DNA of 64,000 nt from a virus. The stretch is from the IMG/VR virus record IMGVR_UViG_3300037067_022543. One strand, written 5' to 3'. Below are positions 3,322-59,983 of the stretch, in pieces (position 1 is the stretch's first letter; each line of letters opens with the position of its first letter). The translations under genes and the position numbers were made by a program. Under the pieces are notes generated by a model. It was given only the letters and a program-made list of their open reading frames with translations. It did not search any database and was not told the DNA's origin.

Positions 3322-4074
3322 TTATTTATCCTTATTACTTATAACAACCCCTTTTTTAAACATTTCTGTTACATCATTATACCATTCTCCAGTAAAATTA
3401 CATTCTAATGTTTGCCTTATCGGTTTTATATTATCAGCTGCTATAATTATATGAAATCTGTATTCACCTTTCTTCAATAAATTACATAAATTAGTAGGAT
3501 CTACTTCCGTATCTAAATATAAAATAGTTTTATAACAATCACAATCGTCTGCATTCTTGTAAACACGTTTATAAACTTTATTATACCATTTGTAGTTATC
3601 TTTAGGATTAATAATATGAAATAAATCACAATATTTTGTTAAACCAGGCGATACCCTGTACATGTTGTTTTTATCATCTATCGTGGATGTTTTAGACCAT
3701 TTTAAATTCATAGGAATATAGTCTTCTTTTTCTCTATAACTTTTATCAGGCTGCTTCTCTTCTATTTTTGCAAGAAAAATTTCTGAATTTTCAATTGGTG
3801 TAAATATTTTAAAAACATTAAAAACATTAGGATAGGTAGATGCTTTAAAAACACTAAAAAACTTAGGATAGACGTTTTCTACCCCAATTCTATAGTAAAA
3901 ACAATTTGAAGATAAATCTTCTCTCTGAATTAAAGTTTTAGAAATATTGTCTAGTGACATCCTTGTTATTGGTTTTATAAAAAATCTTTTTATGTTATCC
4001 TGAAATAAAGCTAAAAATGAAAGAATTAATGAAAGACTTGAAAAAACAATTGAAATCTTTTCTGTTAAAGTCAT
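3322..4074 (-). CDS. hypothetical membrane-anchored protein (250 aa)
   Basis: N-terminal hydrophobic segment (IVFSSLSLILSFLALF); Cys cluster near the C-terminus. Confidence 0.55.
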   Translation of the reverse strand: MTLTEKISIVFSSLSLILSFLALFQDNIKRFFIKPITRMSLDNISKTLIQREDLSSNCFYYRIGVENVYPKFFSVFKASTYPNVFNVFKIFTPIENSEIFLAKIEEKQPDKSYREKEDYIPMNLKWSKTSTIDDKNNMYRVSPGLTKYCDLFHIINPKDNYKWYNKVYKRVYKNADDCDCYKTILYLDTEVDPTNLCNLLKKGEYRFHIIIAADNIKPIRQTLECNFTGEWYNDVTEMFKKGVVISNKDK

Positions 4075-4107
4075 AATATTATCTCTCTTTTTGTTTTAAA
4101 TATATTA

Positions 4108-4380
4108 TTACCATGCTATTTTTTCAAGTTGGTCTTCTAGTTCTTTAATTCGTGCTTGCAACTTTCTGACACGAGAAGGTTCGGTATGTAAACTGTTTGG
4201 CCAACCGCAAAAAGTTTTAATCTGATTCCCACCTTCAGCAGCAGAAGCACAATCTTCTAATGTACGTCCCCATGTTGCAACTTGTTGTTTTTTTTCATGC
4301 TTCTCCCAACCAAAAACTATACACTGATCTAAACCAAATTTAACTGCAAAATCTTTTACGGATTTAATTGATATTCTCAT
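4108..4380 (-). CDS. hypothetical protein (90 aa)
   Basis: ORF with an upstream TTGACA-N16-TATAAAT promoter (4401-4430, minus strand) and AAGGA in SD position. Confidence 0.5.
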   Translation of the reverse strand: MRISIKSVKDFAVKFGLDQCIVFGWEKHEKKQQVATWGRTLEDCASAAEGGNQIKTFCGWPNSLHTEPSRVRKLQARIKELEDQLEKIAW

Positions 4381-4400
4381 TTTGTTTTCATCCTTTCCTT

Positions 4401-4430
4401 ATTTATAACTCAAAATCATATCTTGTCAAT
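4401..4430 (-). promoter_or_regulatory. sigma70-like promoter for 4108..4380
   Basis: Minus strand reads TTGACAAGATATGATTTTGAGTTATAAAT. Confidence 0.5.
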
Positions 4431-4537
4431 AACATTTTTTAATCTTTTTTCAGCATATTCACAATAGTTAGGGCTTATTTCTATCCCCATATATAATTTA
4501 GTTTAAAAATAAATTTTTACATTCATTATTAATTTTA

Positions 4538-4987
4538 TCATAATTTCAAATAGTTTTTAAAAGATATATCTCCAAAATACCCTTTTTGCATTTGAAGAAT
4601 ACAAGTTTGAACTCTAGACCCCTTAAAAACATTCCTCGGAAGATGTGTAATTGATTTTAATCCAAAGTTTATTATATCACTGGTTCTTTTAGTTGAATTA
4701 ATTAGAACTAACCATGGCATTAAGGCTATTATATTGTTACTCATTTCCATGCATCTATATAGTATTTTATATCCTAATTTCATGGGGGTAAACGGAGGAT
4801 TCATTACAATACAATCAAAAATTGATGATGACAGCTGAAAGAAGTCTTCTGGGGCTGTCACATTATAATTACCTAATTCTTTAACAATATTGCCTTCTCC
4901 AGGAGTTGGTTCTAATATGGTTTTGCATCCATTTGGAACTAATGAAACCATATATTTGCATATTTCTGGTGGAGTTTGAAAATTCAT
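4538..4987 (-). CDS. small gamma-class N6-adenine DNA methyltransferase-like protein
   Basis: Motif X QTPPEICKYM, motif I ILEPTPGEGN, motif IV VMNPPF. Confidence 0.55.
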   Translation of the reverse strand: MNFQTPPEICKYMVSLVPNGCKTILEPTPGEGNIVKELGNYNVTAPEDFFQLSSSIFDCIVMNPPFTPMKLGYKILYRCMEMSNNIIALMPWLVLINSTKRTSDIINFGLKSITHLPRNVFKGSRVQTCILQMQKGYFGDISFKNYLKL

Positions 4988-13614: not shown

Positions 13615-14061
13615 TTAATCCTTATGTTTTCCATATAACTGTCTATAACACTTAAAATACTTTATGGCATCTTTAACCCCGTTTAATATAGTAGCATCAT
13701 ATAGACAACCCTGAATCCATCCTGGGACATCCTGTATAGTTATATCATCAAAATAACAAACAATGGGTTTATTGTAAATAGCAGCAAAAGTTATTTCGCT
13801 TAATGTTCCTGCTCCTTTAAGAACTGCAGAATCTATTTTTACAAGAAAATGCTCGCAACGAATCAAGTTGTTAATGTCTCTAATAACAATATTATTAATT
13901 ACTTTTTGTTTATACAAAAAAGAACATTTTTTAGGAACCTTTATCTTGTCTGGAATAATGACATCATAATATTGCAAAAGAGATTCCTTAACTTCATTCC
14001 TCCAATTGAAAGGATCTTTTGATTTTTCTATTGCTCCTGACAAATATATACTTGGTTTCAT
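13615..14061 (-). CDS. nucleoside 2-deoxyribosyltransferase-like protein
   Basis: IYLSGAIE at the N-terminus and DSAVLKGAGTLSEITFAAIYNKPIV, matching the NDT/Rcl-type Rossmann motifs. Confidence 0.55.
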   Translation of the reverse strand: MKPSIYLSGAIEKSKDPFNWRNEVKESLLQYYDVIIPDKIKVPKKCSFLYKQKVINNIVIRDINNLIRCEHFLVKIDSAVLKGAGTLSEITFAAIYNKPIVCYFDDITIQDVPGWIQGCLYDATILNGVKDAIKYFKCYRQLYGKHKD

Positions 14062-15233
14062 AATTTACTTTCAATTTTTCCGCCACTAGTAATCTCTATA
14101 AATTCACATTTTTCCTGAAATTCTTTTAAGTTTTTAGCCCCAACATAAGAAAATGATGATTGCAAGCCATGTTTAATATGTTTTAAAATATGTTTAACAT
14201 GCCCCCTAAAAGGAGCCATTTTTGCAACTCCTTCTACAAATTCATTTGCATTTCCATTTGAAACTTTATTTTCTCCGCTAGCAGAACCAGCATAAACTTT
14301 ATAAAACTCCCCTCTTTCTCCTGTAAAAACATTTCCTGGAGTTTCTGTTGATCCGGACAACATGGAACCGAGCATAACTGCATGAGAATATTTTAAGCTC
14401 TTTGCAATATCTCCTATTGATGACATGCCTCCATCTGCAATTATCTTTATGTGTTTAATGCCTTGTCTTATAAACTCTTCATTAATTGATTCCAAAGCAT
14501 AAAGTTGAGGAACACCAACCCCCGTATTTTTCCTCGTTAAGCAGGCCGAACCAGGACCGACGCCGCACTTAATACAATCTGCTCCCCATTCTGCAATATC
14601 GTAAGCACCTTCTGGAGTTGAAACATTACCTGCTATAATATATATATCTTTTAATCCTTTTTCTTTTATCCATTTTAATATATTTTTCATTACTAAAGAA
14701 TGGCCATGGGCAATATCTATGCAAAATATTTTTGCTCCAGCTTCGTATAAACTGTCAAACCTTTTTTTATCTTCATCTTGAACTCCTATTGAAACTCCAA
14801 TTTCATGGTCTTTATTACAAATACTTTTAATATTAGGATGTATATTAAAAGTACTACTATTAAAACTACTACAAGATTCTGAATATTTATCTTCATCTTT
14901 TAAAATAACAGTTGAGTTTCCTAAACTAATAGTATTACTTATAAGCCCTTCATTAACAGAAAAATGGTTTTTAACTTCTAAAAAATCTTCTACAGCTTGT
15001 TCAATACTGCAAAATCTATGTAAAATTCCCATACCGCCATTTTCAATCATTGCTATTGACATTTTAACGCCGCAAATAGTCTTCATATTTGCTGCTATAA
15101 TTGGCAAATTTATCTTAAAAAATCCAAAATCACTAGATAAATCAACACTTCTTCTAGACTCTATTTCAGAATATTTGGGGACAATTAGTACGTCACTAAA
15201 TGTATATGCTTCTTTATTTATTTTTTTATCCAT
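14058..15233 (-). CDS. IMP dehydrogenase / GMP reductase family protein (no CBS insert)
   Basis: CIDIAHGHS and the catalytic loop GVGPGSACLTR of the IMPDH/GMPR TIM barrel. Confidence 0.8.
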   Translation of the reverse strand: MDKKINKEAYTFSDVLIVPKYSEIESRRSVDLSSDFGFFKINLPIIAANMKTICGVKMSIAMIENGGMGILHRFCSIEQAVEDFLEVKNHFSVNEGLISNTISLGNSTVILKDEDKYSESCSSFNSSTFNIHPNIKSICNKDHEIGVSIGVQDEDKKRFDSLYEAGAKIFCIDIAHGHSLVMKNILKWIKEKGLKDIYIIAGNVSTPEGAYDIAEWGADCIKCGVGPGSACLTRKNTGVGVPQLYALESINEEFIRQGIKHIKIIADGGMSSIGDIAKSLKYSHAVMLGSMLSGSTETPGNVFTGERGEFYKVYAGSASGENKVSNGNANEFVEGVAKMAPFRGHVKHILKHIKHGLQSSFSYVGAKNLKEFQEKCEFIEITSGGKIESKL

Positions 15234-21667: not shown

Positions 21668-22852
21668 CTAATTAATTCTATGTTTTTTAACATAAACTTT
21701 ATCGTTGTTGGTAAGTTTTAAATGAACAAATTTAAAGTTTGACTTTAAAATATTTTCAACATGTTTTTTTTTATTGTTAATTTTATTCATATATTTATTG
21801 AAAATATATGCCTTTTTACCCCACCCTCGTGACATTTTATTATAACTAGTTACCTCAAAATAAGTATTTATTTCAGGAATATAAAAATCATATCTCTTTT
21901 TTCCAAAACCTTTATAAAGTCCATTTATTTTTATTTCTTTGTATTTATTTTTTAATGAAGTTAAATAAAAATATGCCTCGGTAAAAGAATCAAATTTGGT
22001 ATTGTCATCTAAAATTATTTTTACGCATAACGGACATCCATTTCCTCCGATAGACCTATTACATATTGCAGACTTCCATTCGTGCCCAGCCTTACACTTC
22101 CACCACACCTTTTTACGCGATTTACTTACTACATCTTTTGGAGTTAATTTGTTATTTCTATCATAATTCCATTCTTTTGCTAATTCTGGATTCTTTGTTA
22201 CTAAACAAGTTTCACTACAAACTTTGTGGCCGGAACAATAAGGGCAACCCCCTCCGCTAGCCCTGTAGCTAATATTAGCTTCCCATTCGTGCCCCTTTAT
22301 GCATTTCCACCATACTTTTTTATTACTAGTTGCTCCAACATTTTTCGGCATTAAATCTTTATTCTTAACATAATTCCACTCCCTACATAAATTTTTATTT
22401 AAAAATGCTAAAGAATTATCTTTACATATTTTTTGATTACAACAATATGGGCAACATCTTCCATCGTTTCGATTATTTATTTGTGCCACCCATTCGTGAC
22501 CATTTTTGCATTTCCACCATACTTTTTTATTACTACCTGTCGTAAAATCTTTTGGTGAAATTCCAATATTTTTTTTATAATTCCATTCTTTTACCAATTT
22601 TGGATTTATAGTAGCCAAACAATTGTCTGGACACACTTTGTGGCCAGAACAATAAGGACAACTACAACCATTATTTCTATCATTTATTTTGGCTCTCCAA
22701 CTATGACCATTTTTGCATTTCCACCATACTTCTTTATGACTACCAAAACTAACATCCTTGGGAGTTAAACCCATGTTCTTTTCAACATCCCACTCTTTGG
22801 AAAAATCCGGCCTAACAATTGATAATCTGTTTTTATTATTTAGTTTTTTCAT
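21668..22852 (-). CDS. zinc-ribbon repeat protein (4-5 repeats of WWKCKNGHEW...CPYCSG; DUF4379-like) with C-terminal Vsr/DUF559-like nuclease-fold domain
   Basis: Repeats GSNKKVWWKCKNGHEWVAQINNR..CPYC; C-terminal RYDFYIPEINTYFEV resembles the DUF559 core. Confidence 0.6.
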   Translation of the reverse strand: MKKLNNKNRLSIVRPDFSKEWDVEKNMGLTPKDVSFGSHKEVWWKCKNGHSWRAKINDRNNGCSCPYCSGHKVCPDNCLATINPKLVKEWNYKKNIGISPKDFTTGSNKKVWWKCKNGHEWVAQINNRNDGRCCPYCCNQKICKDNSLAFLNKNLCREWNYVKNKDLMPKNVGATSNKKVWWKCIKGHEWEANISYRASGGGCPYCSGHKVCSETCLVTKNPELAKEWNYDRNNKLTPKDVVSKSRKKVWWKCKAGHEWKSAICNRSIGGNGCPLCVKIILDDNTKFDSFTEAYFYLTSLKNKYKEIKINGLYKGFGKKRYDFYIPEINTYFEVTSYNKMSRGWGKKAYIFNKYMNKINNKKKHVENILKSNFKFVHLKLTNNDKVYVKKHRIN

Positions 22853-24895: not shown

Positions 24896-25864
24896 TCATG
24901 GTTTTATGCTCTGGGAACAAATAAGATCTTTATTATCCCAGAAATGTTTTAATGCTACCTGTGTCAATCTCTCAACAAATTGTGCAGGACTATCACCTTC
25001 TCCCTTTTCTACTATTTTATCAATAAACTCAGGACAATCTGACAATATCCTTTTAGCTATTTTTATCCTACAATCCTTATCTAATTTCTTTAATTCAAAT
25101 GCCCTATCTATTCTGCCTGGTCTAGTTGAAATATTTGTTCCGTTAGGATCTTTATCAGTTCTTGGCTTCCCTAACGCTTCATCTAATAATTCTACTCTAT
25201 TCGTAGTTACTATGAGAAATAATCCATCTGTATTTTGAACACCGTCTATGCAATTTAAAAAACAATCAAATGTTAATAAATCTAAATTATTATTTCTATT
25301 TCTAACATTTTCTCTGCCGTTAAAAACAGCATCAACATCTTCAATTAATGCTATACATGGAGTACTTCCTAACATATTTGACCATTCTTTGCAAAATTCA
25401 TAATTAGACATACCAGAAATATCAAAAAAATGAATTGGTAAATCAAGATGCTGACCTATTGCCTTAGCTAAAGAAGTCTTACCTGTATTATGAGAAACTA
25501 TATGATTTGAATAATAACTATGTGCGTTGCTTTTTACTTCAATGTCGTAAGTATCTTTAATGCCAATATATTCTTTTGCAATTACTTTATCTAAACCAGT
25601 TTCTGTTAAAACAGAGTCTTTCCCAACCACAATGTCTTCTGCCGATTTCCATTTTTTATTTTTGCTCATAACCAAATGATCATCGGAACATCCTAAAGAT
25701 AGTCCACCATTAGTTCTCAATATGTATGCATTTTTATTTTTTTTATTATAAACATCTCCTATTTCCATCCACCCATCGGGAGTTTCTATTTCGTATATTC
25801 CGTCTTCATCAACTATTTTAAAAAAATCTTCTATTGAAATTTCTTTTTCGTCTCCAATTTGCAT
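24896..25864 (-). CDS. C-terminal intein fragment (~129 aa) fused to the C-extein of a BCS1-like AAA+ ATPase
   Basis: Intein block B LGCSDDHLVMS and blocks F/G DTYDIEVKSNAHSYYSNHIVSHN, followed by +1 Thr and TGKTSLAKAIG (second half of Walker A); sensor LIVTTN; SD AGGA 6 nt before the ATG. Confidence 0.7.
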   Translation of the reverse strand: MQIGDEKEISIEDFFKIVDEDGIYEIETPDGWMEIGDVYNKKNKNAYILRTNGGLSLGCSDDHLVMSKNKKWKSAEDIVVGKDSVLTETGLDKVIAKEYIGIKDTYDIEVKSNAHSYYSNHIVSHNTGKTSLAKAIGQHLDLPIHFFDISGMSNYEFCKEWSNMLGSTPCIALIEDVDAVFNGRENVRNRNNNLDLLTFDCFLNCIDGVQNTDGLFLIVTTNRVELLDEALGKPRTDKDPNGTNISTRPGRIDRAFELKKLDKDCRIKIAKRILSDCPEFIDKIVEKGEGDSPAQFVERLTQVALKHFWDNKDLICSQSIKP

Positions 25865-25902
25865 ATTATATCCTAATCTCTATTTTTATACTTGTCTACA
25901 AG

Positions 25903-26784
25903 CTACTGGACTATTATTTTTTTGTGCTTGCCATCATTGGACTTTTTTCTTATTTTTATCTTTGTTTCAGCAAGAACACATCCAGGGCTTCCGAAAAGTA
26001 GCCACCCTCTTTTCCAAGGGATAGATTTTGACCTATACCACTTCTCGCTATCCTTCCATCTTTCCATTTCTCCTACTAATGCATCTATTTCTTTTGGAAA
26101 AGCTAATACTTGCAAACTTCTTTTTTCGTCTTGATCTTCTCCTATATCATCAACTTTATATTTTAATATTCTTTTATCTCCAAGAAAAACATCTACATTG
26201 CATGTTATTGTTGCCATTCCTCCATCAGATGGAGCATACTTAGCTGTTTTTTCATCACCATTGCAAGATCGTCCTATGTGTCTATAAATCGTAAATCTAG
26301 ATCTTTTATCATTTTTAATACTCCTTTGATTTAATAACTCTATAGCGTCTATCATTAATTGTTCAATATCAAATGTTCCTCTAATAAAAGAAATAGATGC
26401 AGAACGTTGTTCTCCAATTTCAGATGATGTAACGGGCCTGTTATCATCCTTATTATCAGACATTGAAATAATTAATGGTTTCCAACCCTTCCAAAAAATT
26501 GTTTTGTCTTTAAAATTGACTTCTTCATATCCAATTATATGATGCTTTTTTATACTTTTGATATAATCTCTAAATGTTGAAAAAGAAAGCGGTTGAAATG
26601 GTGATCTTCTAAAATTTTTGACTAAATATACTTCCATCGCTTTTGGCAAATTTCTATCAATTCTAATAGTGACAATAAATAAACTTGATACTCTAGAAAA
26701 TAAAAACTTAATTTTACTCCAAACCAAACCAATAGTGGTAAATATTGCAGCTCCACCAAATACTGTTTCTAAATTATTTAACAT
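25903..26784 (-). CDS. N-extein of BCS1-like AAA+ ATPase (TM anchor, ...KRGWLLFGSPG) fused to a 25-aa N-terminal intein fragment (CVLAETKIKIRKKSNDGKHKKIIVQ)
   Basis: The extein ends in the first half of Walker A (GSPG), directly followed by Cys1 and block-A-like CVLAET; stop after 25 intein residues. Confidence 0.7.
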   Translation of the reverse strand: MLNNLETVFGGAAIFTTIGLVWSKIKFLFSRVSSLFIVTIRIDRNLPKAMEVYLVKNFRRSPFQPLSFSTFRDYIKSIKKHHIIGYEEVNFKDKTIFWKGWKPLIISMSDNKDDNRPVTSSEIGEQRSASISFIRGTFDIEQLMIDAIELLNQRSIKNDKRSRFTIYRHIGRSCNGDEKTAKYAPSDGGMATITCNVDVFLGDKRILKYKVDDIGEDQDEKRSLQVLAFPKEIDALVGEMERWKDSEKWYRSKSIPWKRGWLLFGSPGCVLAETKIKIRKKSNDGKHKKIIVQ

Positions 26785-28901: not shown

Positions 28902-29660
28902 TTAAATCCATTGTTCAATATAATTTCTGTCTTGTGTAAAAATTGGAATTGTGCGATCTTCAATAATATCTGTTCTGAAAACATCGTGATCGCTAATGTT
29001 TTTTTTAGCCTGTTTTTTATATAAGCAAATGCCGCGTTTCTTCCATATGTCTATATTATTCCAATTTATGCCTTTTTCTTTAAAAAGTTTTTCCTGAACT
29101 TGATCGTTATTTAATCCAGACATTTCCTTATGAGAAAAGTTTGCTTGTCCAAGTCCCTGAATACTATTTCTGGTACAATCATTTTGTCTCCAAATAAAAT
29201 AGTTGCAAACTTCTTCTTTAGGCAATACAAAGGCTCTGGAATCAAATAGTCCACAATCACTAATTTCTGGTGATTTTAAATTTAGAAATATAAAACATTT
29301 ATTAAAGCATATAGTAGCAATGGATGCAGATACACTAACAATTTTTTGAAGATTCTTTTCAAACCAAGCTTGCGTGTAAATATTTTCGTAATCTGTTGCC
29401 AAAATGCTGATTTCGTCAGATTGAATATAAGCTAACTTTGAACCTTGAATTTCTTCAAGCAAACCCCTGCCTGTATCAACCATAGCCATTGCAAAATCTT
29501 CATCGAAAGGCTTTTGAAATCCACTCCTTTGTGTAAAACTATGAAACGCCTTTCCATCAACTCTAATAATTAAAGGCATTCTACGAGTAAGATAATGAAG
29601 ATTAACTTCCTCGTACTGCTTCATACGATTTCCTAAAGAATCTGTTTCTATTGTTTTCAT
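28902..29660 (-). CDS. Thg1-like protein (tRNA-His guanylyltransferase / 3'-5' polymerase family)
   Basis: LIIRVDGKAFHSF, IQSDEISIL and FDSRAFVLP match Thg1/TLP catalytic motifs. Confidence 0.8.
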   Translation of the reverse strand: MKTIETDSLGNRMKQYEEVNLHYLTRRMPLIIRVDGKAFHSFTQRSGFQKPFDEDFAMAMVDTGRGLLEEIQGSKLAYIQSDEISILATDYENIYTQAWFEKNLQKIVSVSASIATICFNKCFIFLNLKSPEISDCGLFDSRAFVLPKEEVCNYFIWRQNDCTRNSIQGLGQANFSHKEMSGLNNDQVQEKLFKEKGINWNNIDIWKKRGICLYKKQAKKNISDHDVFRTDIIEDRTIPIFTQDRNYIEQWI

Positions 29661-35094: not shown

Positions 35095-35171
35095 TGGTGA
35101 TCTCGGAGGAATTCGAATCCCCAATTTCTTCCACGTCAAGGAAGCACATTAACCAATTATGTTACGAGACC
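35095..35171 (-). tRNA. tRNA-Val (anticodon GAC), CCA encoded
   Basis: Manual fold: acceptor GGTCTCG/CGAGATC, anticodon arm CTTCC-TTGACGT-GGAAG, T-arm GGGGATTCGAATTCCTC. Confidence 0.65.
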
Positions 35172-36214
35172 AAACTGGTGCTCCTGGCAGGAATTAAACC
35201 CACTTCTACGGGATGAGAACCAGTCGTTTTATTCGGTAAACTATAGGAGCCAAAATTCTTAATCCTATCTAAAAAACTGTCCAATTTGTTTTCTGGATAT
35301 AAATCTGACGGTATTATTTCTATAAATTTTAAATTGTTGTCTTTTACTATTTTGCGTTTGAGTTCTACTACTTTATCATATTCTTCCACCTGCCCTATTA
35401 AACCGAAATATTCTACCAATATATTATAATATGGTAAATAAAAATCACAATCCATATTGCTATTGGGATATTTTTTATTTCTTTCGTGATTTATTTTATT
35501 TATAAAAAACCAATCGTCTACTATTTTTTCAGATATGCTGTCTGCCATATGATTGTCTTGACATTTCAATCTAGTTTTTTGAAATTTACTTTTGTTTGGT
35601 TTTAATCCGCAAAAACTAACGGCTTTATTCCATGTTCCAAAAAATCTTATGGTAGCAGACAATAATCTTATTAAACAATCTCTTTTTTGAGGAGTTCTAT
35701 TAATTTTTTGAGATAATTGTATTATTTTATTAATTACTTCGTCTTTGGTATATGGAGAAAATCCAAACTGATATATTTTTCCGCATTTTGCAGAACAACA
35801 CTTGATTCTTTTTCTCGATGGATGGAATTTTTTTCCACAAATAACGCAGTTCATTTCTTCAAGCATTATTTTATTTTGTGTTTTAAGATATTTTCTAATT
35901 GAATTTCTAGTTTTTTCTGATATTTCTTTTCTTTTTTCATCACTAAAAATTCTATTTTTATTATTTACTACTGCTGCACAAGAATTGCAACAATAAAATT
36001 TCTTTGTTTTACTTCTTTTATAATCACAATTTCCAACCACAATATCTTTTCCACAGTTATAACATTTTAGATTTTTAGATTTTGTTTTAAATTGTATTCT
36101 GCATTCTTTGCTACAAAAAAACTTCCATTTTTGTTTATTCGACCAATTATAATTCCTAGCTGGCATACCAAAATGATGGTGGCAGAAAGAACACTCGACA
36201 TCAATATCTACCAT
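35162..36214 (-). CDS. N-terminal zinc-ribbon repeats + C-terminal DUF559/Vsr-like endonuclease-fold protein
   Basis: Multiple CxxC pairs; DCDFYLPYYNILVEYFG matches the DUF559 core. The ORF as called reads through tRNA-like 35176..35251, so the true 3' end is uncertain. Confidence 0.5.
   Translation of the reverse strand: MVDIDVECSFCHHHFGMPARNYNWSNKQKWKFFCSKECRIQFKTKSKNLKCYNCGKDIVVGNCDYKRSKTKKFYCCNSCAAVVNNKNRIFSDEKRKEISEKTRNSIRKYLKTQNKIMLEEMNCVICGKKFHPSRKRIKCCSAKCGKIYQFGFSPYTKDEVINKIIQLSQKINRTPQKRDCLIRLLSATIRFFGTWNKAVSFCGLKPNKSKFQKTRLKCQDNHMADSISEKIVDDWFFINKINHERNKKYPNSNMDCDFYLPYYNILVEYFGLIGQVEEYDKVVELKRKIVKDNNLKFIEIIPSDLYPENKLDSFLDRIKNFGSYSLPNKTTGSHPVEVGLIPARSTSLVS
35176..35251 (-). tRNA. 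tRNA-like element (possible Glu, anticodon CTC) with acceptor and anticodon-stem mismatches and a non-canonical T-loop
   Basis: Manual fold GCTCCTA...CAGGAGC A CCA; T-loop TTTAATT lacks C56. Confidence 0.3.
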
Positions 36215-36312
36215 AAGAATAACTCCTTTTATATAATTATTCTTTAATATGTCGGCAATCTCCTACTTGAACCTTCAATTATTTGTATTATTTTTTAGGA
36301 CGGTTCAAAAAA

Positions 36313-36390
36313 TGGTGTCGCCATCGGGACTCGAACCCGAACTTTTCAGGATGAAAACCTGATGTGTTAGCCAGTTACACCATGGCGACA
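36313..36390 (-). tRNA. tRNA-Glu (anticodon TTC), CCA encoded
   Basis: Acceptor TGTCGCC/GGCGACA, anticodon arm TCAGG-TTTTCAT-CCTGA, T-arm GGGTTCGAGTCCC. Confidence 0.7.
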
Positions 36391-36395
36391 TAAGT

Positions 36396-36487
36396 TGGTC
36401 AGAGGGGTGGGATTTGAACCCACGATTACCTTGCGGTTTTCCTCCTGCGCCCAAGGCAGGCGTTCTACCAAGCTGAACTACCCTCTG
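36396..36487 (-). tRNA. tRNA-Pro-like (anticodon TGG, G37) with a 20-nt variable region containing a GNRA-capped hairpin (ACC-GCAA-GGT)
   Basis: Perfect acceptor CAGAGGG/CCCTCTG, Pro-type D-loop AGCTTGGTA, anticodon arm CCTGC-CTTGGGC-GCAGG, T-arm GTGGGTTCAAATCCCAC; variable region AGGAAAACCGCAAGGTAATC. Confidence 0.55.
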
Positions 36488-36495
36488 TACAAAAT

Positions 36496-36572
36496 TGGCA
36501 CTCCTGACAGGACTTGAACCTGCACAATCCCACGTTCGTAGCGTAGTGCCCTTCCAATTAGGCCACAGGAGC
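36496..36572 (-). tRNA. tRNA-Arg (anticodon ACG), CCA encoded
   Basis: Acceptor GCTCCTG/CAGGAGT, anticodon loop CTACGAA, T-arm GCAGGTTCAAGTCCTGT. Confidence 0.7.
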
Positions 36573-36606
36573 ATTATACATTAAATTTTCAAATATCAAT
36601 AAAAAA

Positions 36607-36686
36607 TGGTGGGCATGGTGGGATTTGAACCCACGACCTTCTGTGTATCAGACAGACGCTGCTAAAACCAGCTGAGCTACATGCCC
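36607..36686 (-). tRNA. tRNA-Ile (anticodon GAT), CCA encoded
   Basis: Acceptor GGGCATG/CATGCCC, anticodon arm TCTGT-CTGATAC-ACAGA, T-arm GTGGGTTCAAATCCCAC. Confidence 0.7.
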
Positions 36687-36729
36687 ATAATTATGCATTA
36701 TTAAGTTTTCAAATAACAAAACTAAAAAT

Positions 36730-36804
36730 GGTCCGGACCATCCAGAATCGAACTGGAGCCTTCAAGTTCACAGCATGACGGGCTACCACTACCCCATAGT
36801 CGGC
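36730..36804 (-). tRNA. tRNA-His-like (anticodon GTG) with genomically encoded G-1; one C.C mismatch in the acceptor stem
   Basis: Anticodon arm TCATG-CTGTGAA-CTTGA, T-arm TCCAGTTCGATTCTGGA, G immediately 5' of acceptor CCGACTA; the 3' side is TGGTCCG-G-ACCA. Confidence 0.45.
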
Positions 36805-36813
36805 ATCAAAAAG

Positions 36814-36900
36814 TCGGGAAGGTCGGATTTGAACCGACAATGCATTATTTCAGCTCCTGCTTCCAAAGCAGGTCGAGTACCAGTTATCTTCTACTTCCCG
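36814..36900 (-). tRNA. degenerate tRNA-like element (anticodon TGG, A37; irregular D-arm; 17-nt variable region), no CCA
   Basis: Acceptor CGGGAAG/CTTCCCG and T-arm GTCGGTTCAAATCCGAC are intact; the anticodon stem CCTGC/GCAGG is identical to that of tRNA-Pro-like 36396..36487. Confidence 0.35.
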
Positions 36901-58060: not shown

Positions 58061-59983
58061 TTATTTCTTTTTATCATCAACCATTTCAAAATCAGCATCA
58101 ATTACATCACCTTGTGCATCTTTTTTGTCTTTAATGTTATCAGATGTTTGTTCAGATGTTTTTTCTTTAGAATTCTTTGCTTTTTCATATAATTCAGAAG
58201 AAACAGAATGCATAGATTCATTAAGTGATTCCATTTTTTCCTTAATTGTCTTAACATCTTCAGATTTAATGGCAGATTTCAATTCTTCTATTTTCTTTTC
58301 AACATCTATTTTTTTATCAGAAGAAATCTTTTCAGAATTATCTTTCAGCATTTTCTCTGTTTGATAAACAACATTTTCTGCTATGTTCTTTGTTTCGATT
58401 TTTTCCCTTGAATCCTTATCTTCTTGAGAATGTTCTTCTGCATCTTTAACCATTTCTTTAATTTCTTTTTCAGTCAATCCACTAGATGCTGTTATGGTTA
58501 TCTTTTGTTCCTTATTTGTTCCCAAATCTTTTGCAGAAACATGTAAAATACCATTAGCATCTATATCAAATGCCACTTCTATTTGAGGTGTTCCACGCAT
58601 AGCAGGAGGAATACCATCAAGATGAAAACGCCCTAATGATTTATTACCTTTTGCCATTTGTCTTTCGCCTTGCAAAACATGTATTTCTACGGCAGGTTGG
58701 TTGTCAGCTGCAGTACTAAATATTTCTGACTTGCGTGTTGGTATGGTGGTATTTCTCTCAATCAATTTTGTATAAACTCCACCCAATGTTTCTATCCCTA
58801 AAGAGAGGGGAGTAACATCTAACAGCAACACATCTTTTACATCTCCCTTAATAATACCTCCTTGTATAGAAGCCCCAACTGCAACTACTTCATCTGGATT
58901 AACGCCTTTATGAGGTTCTTTTCCAAATGTCGCTTGAACAACATCTTGAACTTTAGGCATTCTGGTCATTCCTCCAACCATAACAACTTCATTAATATCT
59001 TTATAATCCAAACTAGAATCTTTCACGCATTTTTTGACTGGTGAAAGAGTTCTGCTAATTAAATCATCAACTAGTTGTTCTAGTTTAGATCTGGACAAGT
59101 TAATATTTAAATGTTTTGGTCCAGAAGCATCAGCAGTAATAAAAGGAAGATTAATATCAGTTTGTTGAGATGAAGATAACTCACATTTAGCTTTTTCAGC
59201 AGCTTCCTTCAATCTTTGCAAAGCCATACTATCTTTTGACAAATCAATGCCGTTATCTTTTTTGAATTCAGAAGTCAACCATTGGATAATAAGTTGATCA
59301 AAATCATCTCCACCAAGATGGGTGTCACCATTAGTAGATTTAACTTCAAAAACTCCATCTCCTATATCCAAAATAGAAATATCAAAAGTTCCACCACCAA
59401 GATCATAAACAGCAATCTTTTCATCCTTCTTTTTGTCCATACCATAGGCTAAAGAAGCAGCAGTTGGCTCATTAATTATTCTTAACACTTCAAGACCAGC
59501 AATCTTTCCAGCATCCTTTGTGGCTTGCCTCTGACTATCATTGAAATATGCTGGCACAGTTATAATTGCTTGTGTAACACTTTCCCCCAAATAAGATTCT
59601 GCATCTGTTTTCAACTTTTGCAAAATCATAGATGATATTTCAGGAGGAGAATAAGTCTTGCCATCTACTTCAACATGGGCATCACCATTTTTTGCTTTTA
59701 CTATTTTATATGGTACTAATGATATTTCGTGAGCTACTTCATCATATTTTCTTCCCATAAACCTTTTAATTGAATAAACAGTGTTTTTGGGGTTAGTCAC
59801 TGATTGCCTTTTAGCTGATTGCCCAACAAGCCTTTCTCCGCTTTTAGTGAATGCTACTATTGAAGGAGTTGTTCTACTGCCTTCTGCATTTGGAATAACA
59901 ACAGGTTGCCCGCCTTCCATAACAGCCATACAGCTATTTGTAGTTCCCAAGTCTATACCTATAACCTTATTCGATTTAGCCAT
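58061..59983 (-). CDS. dnaK: Hsp70 chaperone DnaK (bacterial type)
   Basis: [33 protein letters not shown]; full-length 640 aa; TATAAT and AAGGAA upstream. Confidence 0.9.

Follow-up and report, generated by a model that had tools for sequence, protein, structure and literature searches.

A probable BCS1-like AAA+ ATPase encoded in two pieces on a viral contig, with a predicted atypically split class-1 intein in its Walker A motif

IMG/VR virus record IMGVR_UViG_3300037067_022543 was analysed over a stretch of 64,000 nucleotides (nt), hereafter the window. At positions 24,896 to 26,784, two adjacent open reading frames (ORFs) on the minus strand very probably encode one BCS1-like AAA+ ATPase in two pieces, split in Walker A by a naturally and atypically split class-1 intein that would act by trans-splicing. 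ORF1 (26784..25903, minus strand) encodes 293 aa and ends in ...WKRGWLLFGSPG-CVLAETKIKIRKKSNDGKHKKIIVQ-TAG. ORF2 (25864..24896, minus strand) encodes 322 aa, and its intein part ends in ...DTYDIEVKSNAHSYYSNHIVSHN, followed by TGKTSLAKAIG. The features of the locus are as follows.

25981..26784, minus strand: N-extein, residues 1-268 of the probable BCS1-like AAA+ ATPase, with the first Walker A half at its C-terminus (...GWLLFGSPG)
25906..25980, minus strand: putative N-intein (IntN), 25 aa, CVLAETKIKIRKKSNDGKHKKIIVQ, with an 11-aa block-A core and a 14-aa basic tail
25903..25905, minus strand: ORF1 stop codon TAG, which by comparison with the related locus L015 is also the junction of an endonuclease-gene deletion
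25865..25902, minus strand: intergenic gap of 38 nt, CTTGTAGACAAGTATAAAAATAGAGATTAGGATATAAT, the relic of the last ~13 codons of the endonuclease gene
25871..25874, minus strand: Shine-Dalgarno-like AGGA for ORF2, inside the gap and 6 nt before the ATG at 25864
25487..25864, minus strand: putative C-intein (IntC), 126 aa, MQIGDEKEISIEDFF...YYSNHIVSHN, with helix α1 and blocks B, F and G
24899..25486, minus strand: C-extein, 196 aa, from Thr+1, with TGKTSLAKAIG and the rest of the AAA+ module (PF00004)
24896..24898, minus strand: ORF2 stop codon

The fused intein would comprise 151 aa and the joined exteins, as the predicted spliced product, 464 aa, with GWLLFGSPGTGK as the predicted splice-junction tryptic peptide. 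The IntN core spans Cys1 to Arg11, and the tail carries an invariant G17-K18-H19. In IntC, we found block B SDDH (His88 in fused-intein numbering), block F Asp132 and block G His150-Asn151. The net charge is +6 for IntN and -9 for IntC, with -10 in the first 35 aa of IntC. A previous sequence-only reading of the window had described ORF1 as ending in KRGWLLFGSPG, CVLAETKIKIRKKSNDGKHKKIIVQ and TAG at 25903..26784 (minus strand), the AGGA 6 nt before the ATG, and block B LGCSDDHLVMS and blocks F/G DTYDIEV...YYSNHIVSHN ahead of TGKTSLAKAIG in ORF2; all of these were found in place. It had also claimed a 38-nt gap closed in all frames, which a single indel could not bridge. The gap is exactly 38 nt long and contains stop codons in 3/3 frames, so that several indels would be required to fuse the halves. 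The C-intein, estimated there at ~129 aa, proved to be 126 aa long, with Thr+1 as residue 127 of ORF2 (nt 25486). The whole 1889-nt region was identical in two other assemblies (ENA ERZ27247363, SRR8542065), and in a third (SRR18595300) the last 1385 nt were identical, gap included.

The host protein was characterised with the two exteins joined in silico. Over 455 aa, the spliced product and the intein-less homologue P0003 were 79% identical, and the alignment ran through GSPGTGKT without a gap. The N-extein was colinear with P0003 residues 1-265, and ORF2 was 90% identical to P0003 over the aligned stretch (59% of the query). This agreed with the earlier claim that joining the exteins yields an intact P-loop. 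The score against Pfam AAA (PF00004) rose from 49.6 bits for ORF2 alone to 63.1 bits for the in-silico spliced product, in which Walker A GSPGTGKT and Walker B IALIEDVD are both visible. When the spliced extein was compared with the PDB, BCS1 chains were the best match (E = 6.6e-20), as the BCS1-like call had anticipated; the match covered the AAA module only (query residues 233-377), and BCS1 chains ranked only marginally ahead of p97/NVL-type AAA proteins. The N-terminal 230 aa of the ATPase had no Pfam match, and the PHROG match of the ATPase is a family of unknown function. These results suggested that the host is a probable phage BCS1-like AAA+ ATPase, with the insertion in Walker A between GSPG and TGKT.

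The identity of the intein was supported by profile, sequence and fold comparisons. The NCBIfam intein_Cterm profile matched at 18.7-20.1 bits, above its cut-off of 15.6, with ORF2 itself at 18.7 bits. In a phmmer search of the PDB, the fused intein matched VidaL (6VGV) first (E = 6e-10), then gp41-1 (4e-7) and NrdJ-1, and a family profile matched VidaL by hmmsearch at E = 7e-29. The similarity to Hint domains that had been proposed as a check was thus found. AlphaFold2, run on an artificial single-chain fusion of both intein halves with a 26-sequence alignment, predicted a HINT domain with a predicted local distance difference test score (pLDDT) of 93.8 and a predicted template modelling score (pTM) of 0.87. 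Using Foldseek against the PDB, VidaL was again the top match of this model, with template modelling (TM) scores of 0.84/0.88 and a root-mean-square deviation of 2.4 Å, and 50/50 of the best listed matches were inteins or related bacterial intein-like (BIL) HINT domains. Cys1 directly follows GSPG, and Cys1, His88, Asp132 and Asn151 were invariant in the family alignments. His150 was invariant in nine close loci and present in most of the wider alignment A4, and the +1 residue, Thr in the window, is Ser or Cys in relatives. Collectively, these data supported a class-1 intein with a HINT splicing domain and predicted splicing activity.

The split itself was conserved across diverged loci. A homologue search with ORF2 returned proteins of similar length with the same start residue (MQIGE...) and 39-78% identity, figures that refer to IntC plus C-extein in the seven loci for which protein-search values exist. 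It also returned many intein-less homologues of 430-520 aa. A second homologue search (alignment A2) added only 9 new proteins. In total, nine further distinct loci shared the layout of the window (L004, L005, L006/7, L008, L009, L010/11, L012/13, L015 and L016). The L016 intein matched at 45% by tblastn, and L012 has another AAA+ host, whose gene encodes an AAA_lid_3 domain. In the GenBank phage collection, tblastn found no record covering at least 80% of ORF2, and all matches were below 60% identity, so that this collection offered no cultured or annotated counterpart. At the nine loci, the upstream ORF reads GxxG, then CV(L/V/T)xxT(K/E)I(K/R)(I/V)RK..GKH.. and then a stop, and a separate downstream ORF starts with MQ(I/V/T)(G/E)E... 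and runs to SHN followed by (T/S)GK(T/S). The IntC start Met was conserved in all loci. Across the 9 aligned loci, the invariant IntN residues were C1, V2, T6, I8, R11, K12, G17, K18 and H19. When 10 loci were compared, each of these residues was encoded by 2-4 synonymous codons, which indicates that the peptide is under selection. In 10/10 loci, IntN had a net charge of +1 to +8 and IntC of -5 to -16; such electrostatic complementarity of the halves is typical of split inteins. In relatives, the halves were separated by anything between 17 nt and ~1.2 kb, the latter accommodating a whole gene. The sequence-only reading had proposed a naturally split intein with a 25-residue N-fragment, and the nine diverged loci with the same layout and split point bore this out. 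The comparison indicates that this is a naturally split intein whose split is maintained by selection across homologues.

To place the split, we used the known natural atypical sites as a reference. At the S1 site, the split lies after β2 (VidaL, 16 aa; PolB16, 15 aa), and at the S2 site it lies after α1 (AceL-TerL, 25 aa; GOS-TerL, 37 aa) (PMC13014065). Natural atypical IntN fragments range from 15 to 37 aa (PMC13014065), and the 25-aa IntN of the window is inside this range. In the model, β2 comprises residues 7-14, the split between residues 25 and 26 falls in a loop at 15-30, and α1 comprises residues 36-45 (IEDFFKIVDE). Helix α1 (EISIEDFFKIV) is encoded in ORF2, that is, in IntC, and an 11-residue tail separates β2 from the split. 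These results indicated that the split site is of the S1/VidaL type, despite an IntN length equal to that of AceL-TerL. The AceL-TerL-type assignment made earlier was not retained, because helix α1 belongs to the C-fragment and the site is therefore not S2. In contiguous mini-intein relatives such as P0169 (CVLGNTTIRI-LGNDVDRTVSMADFF), residue 11 is joined straight to the IntC-Met column in alignment A4, which suggests that IntN consists of an 11-aa core and a 14-aa basic tail. A separate observation concerned P0130 (605 aa), which has an N-terminal S1-type IntC and, further on, an intein of this family in contiguous form (CVIKGTKVKIRYRGITGNITKKICITEIKNFL...). This inner intein has an extended β-hairpin continuous with α1 and is a natural unsplit counterpart of the window IntN tail.

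The related loci also pointed to the origin of the gap. Free-standing endonuclease genes were found between the intein halves at the following five loci, with Pfam NUMOD3 and Tn7_TnsA-like_N above cut-offs in 5/5.

L015:493-1389, free-standing endonuclease gene
L004:647-1540, free-standing endonuclease gene
L005:1862-3082, free-standing endonuclease gene
L008:1345-2325, free-standing endonuclease gene
L012:2623-3528, free-standing endonuclease gene

The endonuclease has PD-(D/E)xK residues (E...D...EVK) and N-terminal CxxC zinc-ribbon-like repeats. In every case, the 3' end of its gene overlaps with the beginning of IntC, with ..ICKLE.. in one frame and MQIGE in the other. The protein had no match in the PDB by phmmer, and a link to I-Bth0305I or Vsr-like enzymes was dropped, as no PDB match was obtained and the Pfam matches were NUMOD3 and TnsA-like. 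The closest relative of the window was L015 (78% identity over IntC and extein), in which IntN ends in ...KHKKIIVQ-TAG as in the window. The stop is followed by a 48-nt spacer and then by a 298-aa NUMOD3 plus TnsA-like PD-(D/E)xK ORF. The window and L015 share sequence up to CAGTAG; downstream of this point the window continues directly with 3'-terminal sequence of the endonuclease gene. Aligned with the final 38 nt of the endonuclease ORF of L015, the gap was identical at 28/38 positions. By tblastn, 20 codons running from the gap into the ORF2 start (VDKYKNRD*DIICKLETKKK) matched VNKYKNRMEDMICKLEMKKK at 75%, the first part being VDKYKNRD*DIICKLE... against VNKYKNRMEDMICKLE... Because the gap corresponds to the endonuclease 3' end, the gene was deleted cleanly from just after the IntN stop codon; the tail survived since it bears the ribosome-binding site of IntC. 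These comparisons traced the 38-nt gap to a free-standing homing endonuclease gene of which nothing else is left, an origin that the sequence-only reading had not noticed.

Similar relics were present at other loci: the last 56 endonuclease codons at L016, the last 31 at L010, where they are continuous with the IntN tail, a degenerate copy with stops at L009 and endonuclease scraps at L006. As the relics differ in extent and the intein halves are intact, we count at least five independent endonuclease decay events. Repeated decay of the endonuclease with intact halves is strong indirect evidence that trans-splicing would be needed for the ATPase.

Several further arrangements were observed among the relatives. 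At L017:1999-4074 (IMG/VR UViG_3300035698_031462), IntN, an endonuclease fragment and IntC lie in one frame (..KIFVEYSPDFIVDGKVLVEVKPKHNG..), and in P0140, IntN and IntC lie in one frame via a short linker, the IntC Met being retained (..GIDKMHIGEEKE..). Both have the appearance of cis-inteins that arose secondarily, by re-fusion of split halves. In P0145 (653 aa) and P0149 (468 aa), the NUMOD3/TnsA-like endonuclease or its N-terminal part is in frame with IntC and C-extein (..KKYKKNDLQINEEVELT..); these may be gene-call or frameshift artefacts, or real S1-site endonuclease-intein fusions. At L017:~3800-4946 and in P0121, P0131, P0132 and P0133, an S1-split intein in Walker A is accompanied by a second intein from the Walker B region. 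In these related AAA+ hosts, the second intein follows ..APC and begins with VVGSTRININGD.. or ILGETNIIIND.., and at L017 it is followed by another free-standing ORF (4059..4946). These AAA+ genes appear to be in three pieces, broken by two inteins.

The layout resembles that of fractured genes, in which an N-extein-IntN gene, a short spacer, a free-standing endonuclease gene and an IntC-C-extein gene follow one another (Dassa et al. 2009, PMC2677866). The spacers reported there are 27-51 nt long, the loci are mainly from phages, and endonuclease-less loci were also noted (PMC2677866). L015, L004, L005, L008 and L012 have exactly this layout, with a spacer of 48 nt in L015, whereas the window keeps only 38 nt of the endonuclease gene. 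The window thus reads as an endonuclease-deleted derivative of a fractured gene and not as a current example. The hosts described in 2009 were enzymes of DNA synthesis and repair, eight in number; neither "ATPase" nor "AAA" appears in the paper, and the endonucleases were GIY-YIG, HNH or Vsr-like (PMC2677866). In contrast, the endonuclease here is of the NUMOD3 plus TnsA-like PD-(D/E)xK kind, and its gene sits at the S1 site instead of the usual nested-endonuclease-domain site.

Taken together, the conserved chemistry, the predicted fold, the signs of selection and the characterised relative lead us to infer trans-splicing that would rebuild Walker A. According to the proposed mechanism, ORF1 would give the N-extein with the basic 25-aa IntN, and ORF2 would give the acidic 126-aa IntC with the C-extein. 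ORF2 would be translated from its own Shine-Dalgarno sequence and ATG, probably on the same transcript as ORF1. No terminator-like site was found at the ORF1-ORF2 boundary, which makes co-transcription likely, and a promoter scan was uninformative (12 sites versus 13.2 expected). The halves would associate with the help of their opposite charges, and IntN would add strands β1-β2 and complete the HINT fold. Formation of the Cys1 thioester, attack by Thr+1 and cyclisation of Asn151 would then yield the active ATPase of 464 aa, its GSPGTGKT P-loop restored.

Some observations weigh against this interpretation. The mechanistic steps are taken from established intein chemistry, and splicing and expression are predictions from sequence. 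The NCBIfam intein_Nterm profile scored 15.6-16.6 bits against a cut-off of 24.5, and Pfam Intein_splicing scored 15.9-17.5 bits against 35.8. Of the block and profile alignment proposed earlier, the C-terminal profile therefore passed, and these two fell below their cut-offs. The sub-cut-off match of ORF2 to intein_Nterm starts only at profile position 14, as expected if the first ~12 profile positions lie on ORF1. With the general N-terminal profiles below cut-off, homology was judged from the PDB sequence and profile matches. The HINT fold was predicted on an artificial single-chain fusion of the two halves. Single-sequence AlphaFold prediction of the fused intein was poor (pLDDT 36), and the split-bearing loop was less confident (block-mean pLDDT 78 and 73, residues 11-30). 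Cys1 with Thr+1 is a less common nucleophile pair. Finally, no hallmark structural gene was found in the 64,000-nt window, and its phage origin was deduced from gene content and IMG/VR relatives.

Four other explanations were considered. The first is a decaying gene, in which the ATPase became a pseudogene after endonuclease invasion and deletion, leaving two leftover ORFs and no splicing. The gap is indeed a deletion scar with a broken endonuclease tail and an internal stop, the curated intein N-terminal profiles are sub-threshold, and expression of the ORFs is a prediction. We regard this explanation as quite improbable, since neither ORF is truncated or disrupted in the nine diverged loci or in the three assemblies of identical sequence, and since C1, H88, D132, N151 and the +1 nucleophile are all kept. 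Moreover, the IntN residues persist through synonymous codon changes, the exteins are 79-90% identical to intein-less homologues, and it is the endonuclease gene that decays repeatedly, not the intein halves.

The second explanation is association without splicing, the intein halves serving as a heterodimerisation module for a non-covalent ATPase or as a regulated, conditional splicing switch. The strong charge complementarity of the fragments would suit such a role, and as Walker A is cut exactly at the nucleotide-binding loop, ATPase activity would depend on the behaviour of the intein. However, a P-loop with a 151-aa HINT domain inside could not bind ATP, all residues for the chemistry are invariant, and the characterised relative VidaL splices fast, with a half-time of about 1 min (cited in PMC13014065). 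This possibility was considered very improbable.

Recoding was judged highly improbable. In this case, ribosomal bypass or frameshifting over 41 nt (stop plus gap) would give a single precursor for cis-splicing. The adjacent same-strand ORFs with no terminator between them, and the contiguous or re-fused versions elsewhere (L017, P0140), would be compatible with it. In opposition to this, stops close 3/3 frames of the gap, the spacing in relatives leaves no conserved bypass signal possible, and ORF2 has its own Shine-Dalgarno-like motif and an ATG kept as Met in all loci. The chance that a conventional contiguous mini-intein was broken by assembly or sequencing errors is practically negligible: the sequence is an AT-rich metagenomic assembly with homopolymer runs near the junction, but three independent samples and assemblers gave identical sequence, frame fusion would take several indels, and diverged loci have the same split point, some with a 300-400-aa gene between the halves.

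Trans-splicing of the two ATPase pieces thus being the preferred interpretation, we compared the intein with characterised systems. VidaL (T4Lh-1; Lake Vida metagenome; PDB 6VGV/6VGW; 16-aa IntN), whose host we take to be a T4-like helicase, was the closest solved relative by sequence and predicted fold. Like VidaL, the present intein has a short IntN and a split after β2 and before α1 (S1). Unlike it, IntN here is 24-27 aa long with a conserved basic tail (RKK..GKH..) after the 11-aa core, the nucleophile pair is Cys1/Thr+1, the host is BCS1-like AAA+, an endonuclease-gene relic lies at the window locus, and identity to VidaL is only 24%. AceL-TerL and GOS-TerL share the short IntN (also 25 aa in AceL-TerL), the long IntC, the metagenomic origin and the class-1 chemistry. 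However, they are split after α1 (S2), their host is the terminase large subunit, and they are more distant, with only the engineered consensus CatC in the PDB list (E = 2.7e-9). TerL-type S2-like fragments were also among the distant matches of the IntC profile. PolB16 OarG (S1, 15-aa IntN, cysteine-less; PMC10189870) is likewise a natural S1-type split intein with a short IntN and of metagenomic origin, but it has Ser1/Ser+1, a 168-aa IntC with extra strands and a PolB DNA polymerase host. Its match was weak (phmmer E = 0.65-0.8; Foldseek rank 39).

The breadth of the family was assessed with the IntC profile against a representative library, in which 13,100 cluster representatives matched at E < 1e-3, and 69 of them reached E < 1e-30. 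For the 150 top-ranking proteins of this search, each of which stands for a 50%-identity cluster, the intein domains were classified as follows, with P-loop sites counted as N followed by xGK(S/T).

S1-type IntC at the protein N-terminus: 48 domains, 34 at P-loop sites
S2-like, many with terminase-like junctions: 34 domains, 2 at P-loop sites
Internal, with block A upstream: 92 domains, 4 at P-loop sites
Internal, unclear: 56 domains, 27 at P-loop sites

Among these best 150 representatives, the counts suggest that the word "rare" in the literature greatly understates how common atypically split inteins are in phage metagenomes.

The relatives in IMG/VR lie on viral contigs of 15-330 kb, one of them adjoining a terminase gene. 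The window has a guanine-plus-cytosine content of 30%, genes nearly all on one strand and 13 tRNA genes, and its gene content includes methyltransferase, helicase, HSP70, IMPDH and Thg1. These features are consistent with a large phage. A giant-virus origin, considered because HSP70, DUF4379 and Thg1 are present, was judged less likely, though the judgement falls short of proof, on account of the co-oriented, tight and overlapping genes, the tRNA arrays, the Shine-Dalgarno-like motifs and the IMG/VR relatives, one near a terminase.

Other genes of the window were noted in passing. A 394-aa ORF (21668..22852, minus strand) with four DUF4379 treble-clef zinc-finger repeats (253 bits) lies between a 5'-3' exonuclease gene and glycosyltransferase-like ORFs. 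The ~100 aa at its C-terminus (..RYDFYIPEINTYFEVTS..) might form a nuclease, and the ORF might be another selfish endonuclease. A 350-aa ORF (35162..36214, minus strand) with a "homing endonuclease associated repeat" (HNH_repeat) abuts a seven-tRNA cluster, and among the tRNA genes at 35095..36900, two tRNA-Pro(TGG) predictions stand out by their length (88 and 92 nt). The window also contains a full-length chaperone gene of the HSP70/DnaK type (58061..59983, minus strand; 908 bits), together with IMPDH (14058..15233), Thg1 (28902..29660), one gene of the radical SAM kind and two or three DNA methyltransferases.

Short-IntN split inteins are highly valued in protein semisynthesis and for editing proteins in living cells. 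To our knowledge, the characterised natural split inteins whose N-fragment is short and accessible to chemical synthesis are few, namely AceL-TerL, GOS-TerL, VidaL and PolB16. The present locus adds a confident short-IntN candidate, with a 25-aa IntN and a Cys1/Thr+1 pair, to this already known rare type. New for the type are the host protein and the insertion site, Walker A of a BCS1-like AAA+ ATPase. A joint reading of the loci can be put forward tentatively, at less than even odds: free-standing homing endonuclease genes, in this case of the NUMOD3 plus TnsA-like PD-(D/E)xK kind, may have in the S1 loop of the HINT fold a second natural site at which they integrate recurrently, and this may be the source of a large, mostly undescribed atypically split clade in large phages; the conserved basic RKK..GKH tail of the present subfamily may act as an electrostatic capture module. 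If this is true, the series of loci would represent a full split-intein life cycle, with the endonuclease intact, decayed, deleted or re-fused in frame, and new orthogonal short-IntN tools for protein semisynthesis might be obtained from it. The diverged natural variants map which IntN residues matter, and the related loci form a natural series for split-intein evolution in which the endonuclease decays or is deleted repeatedly, the split persists and re-fusion appears to occur occasionally.

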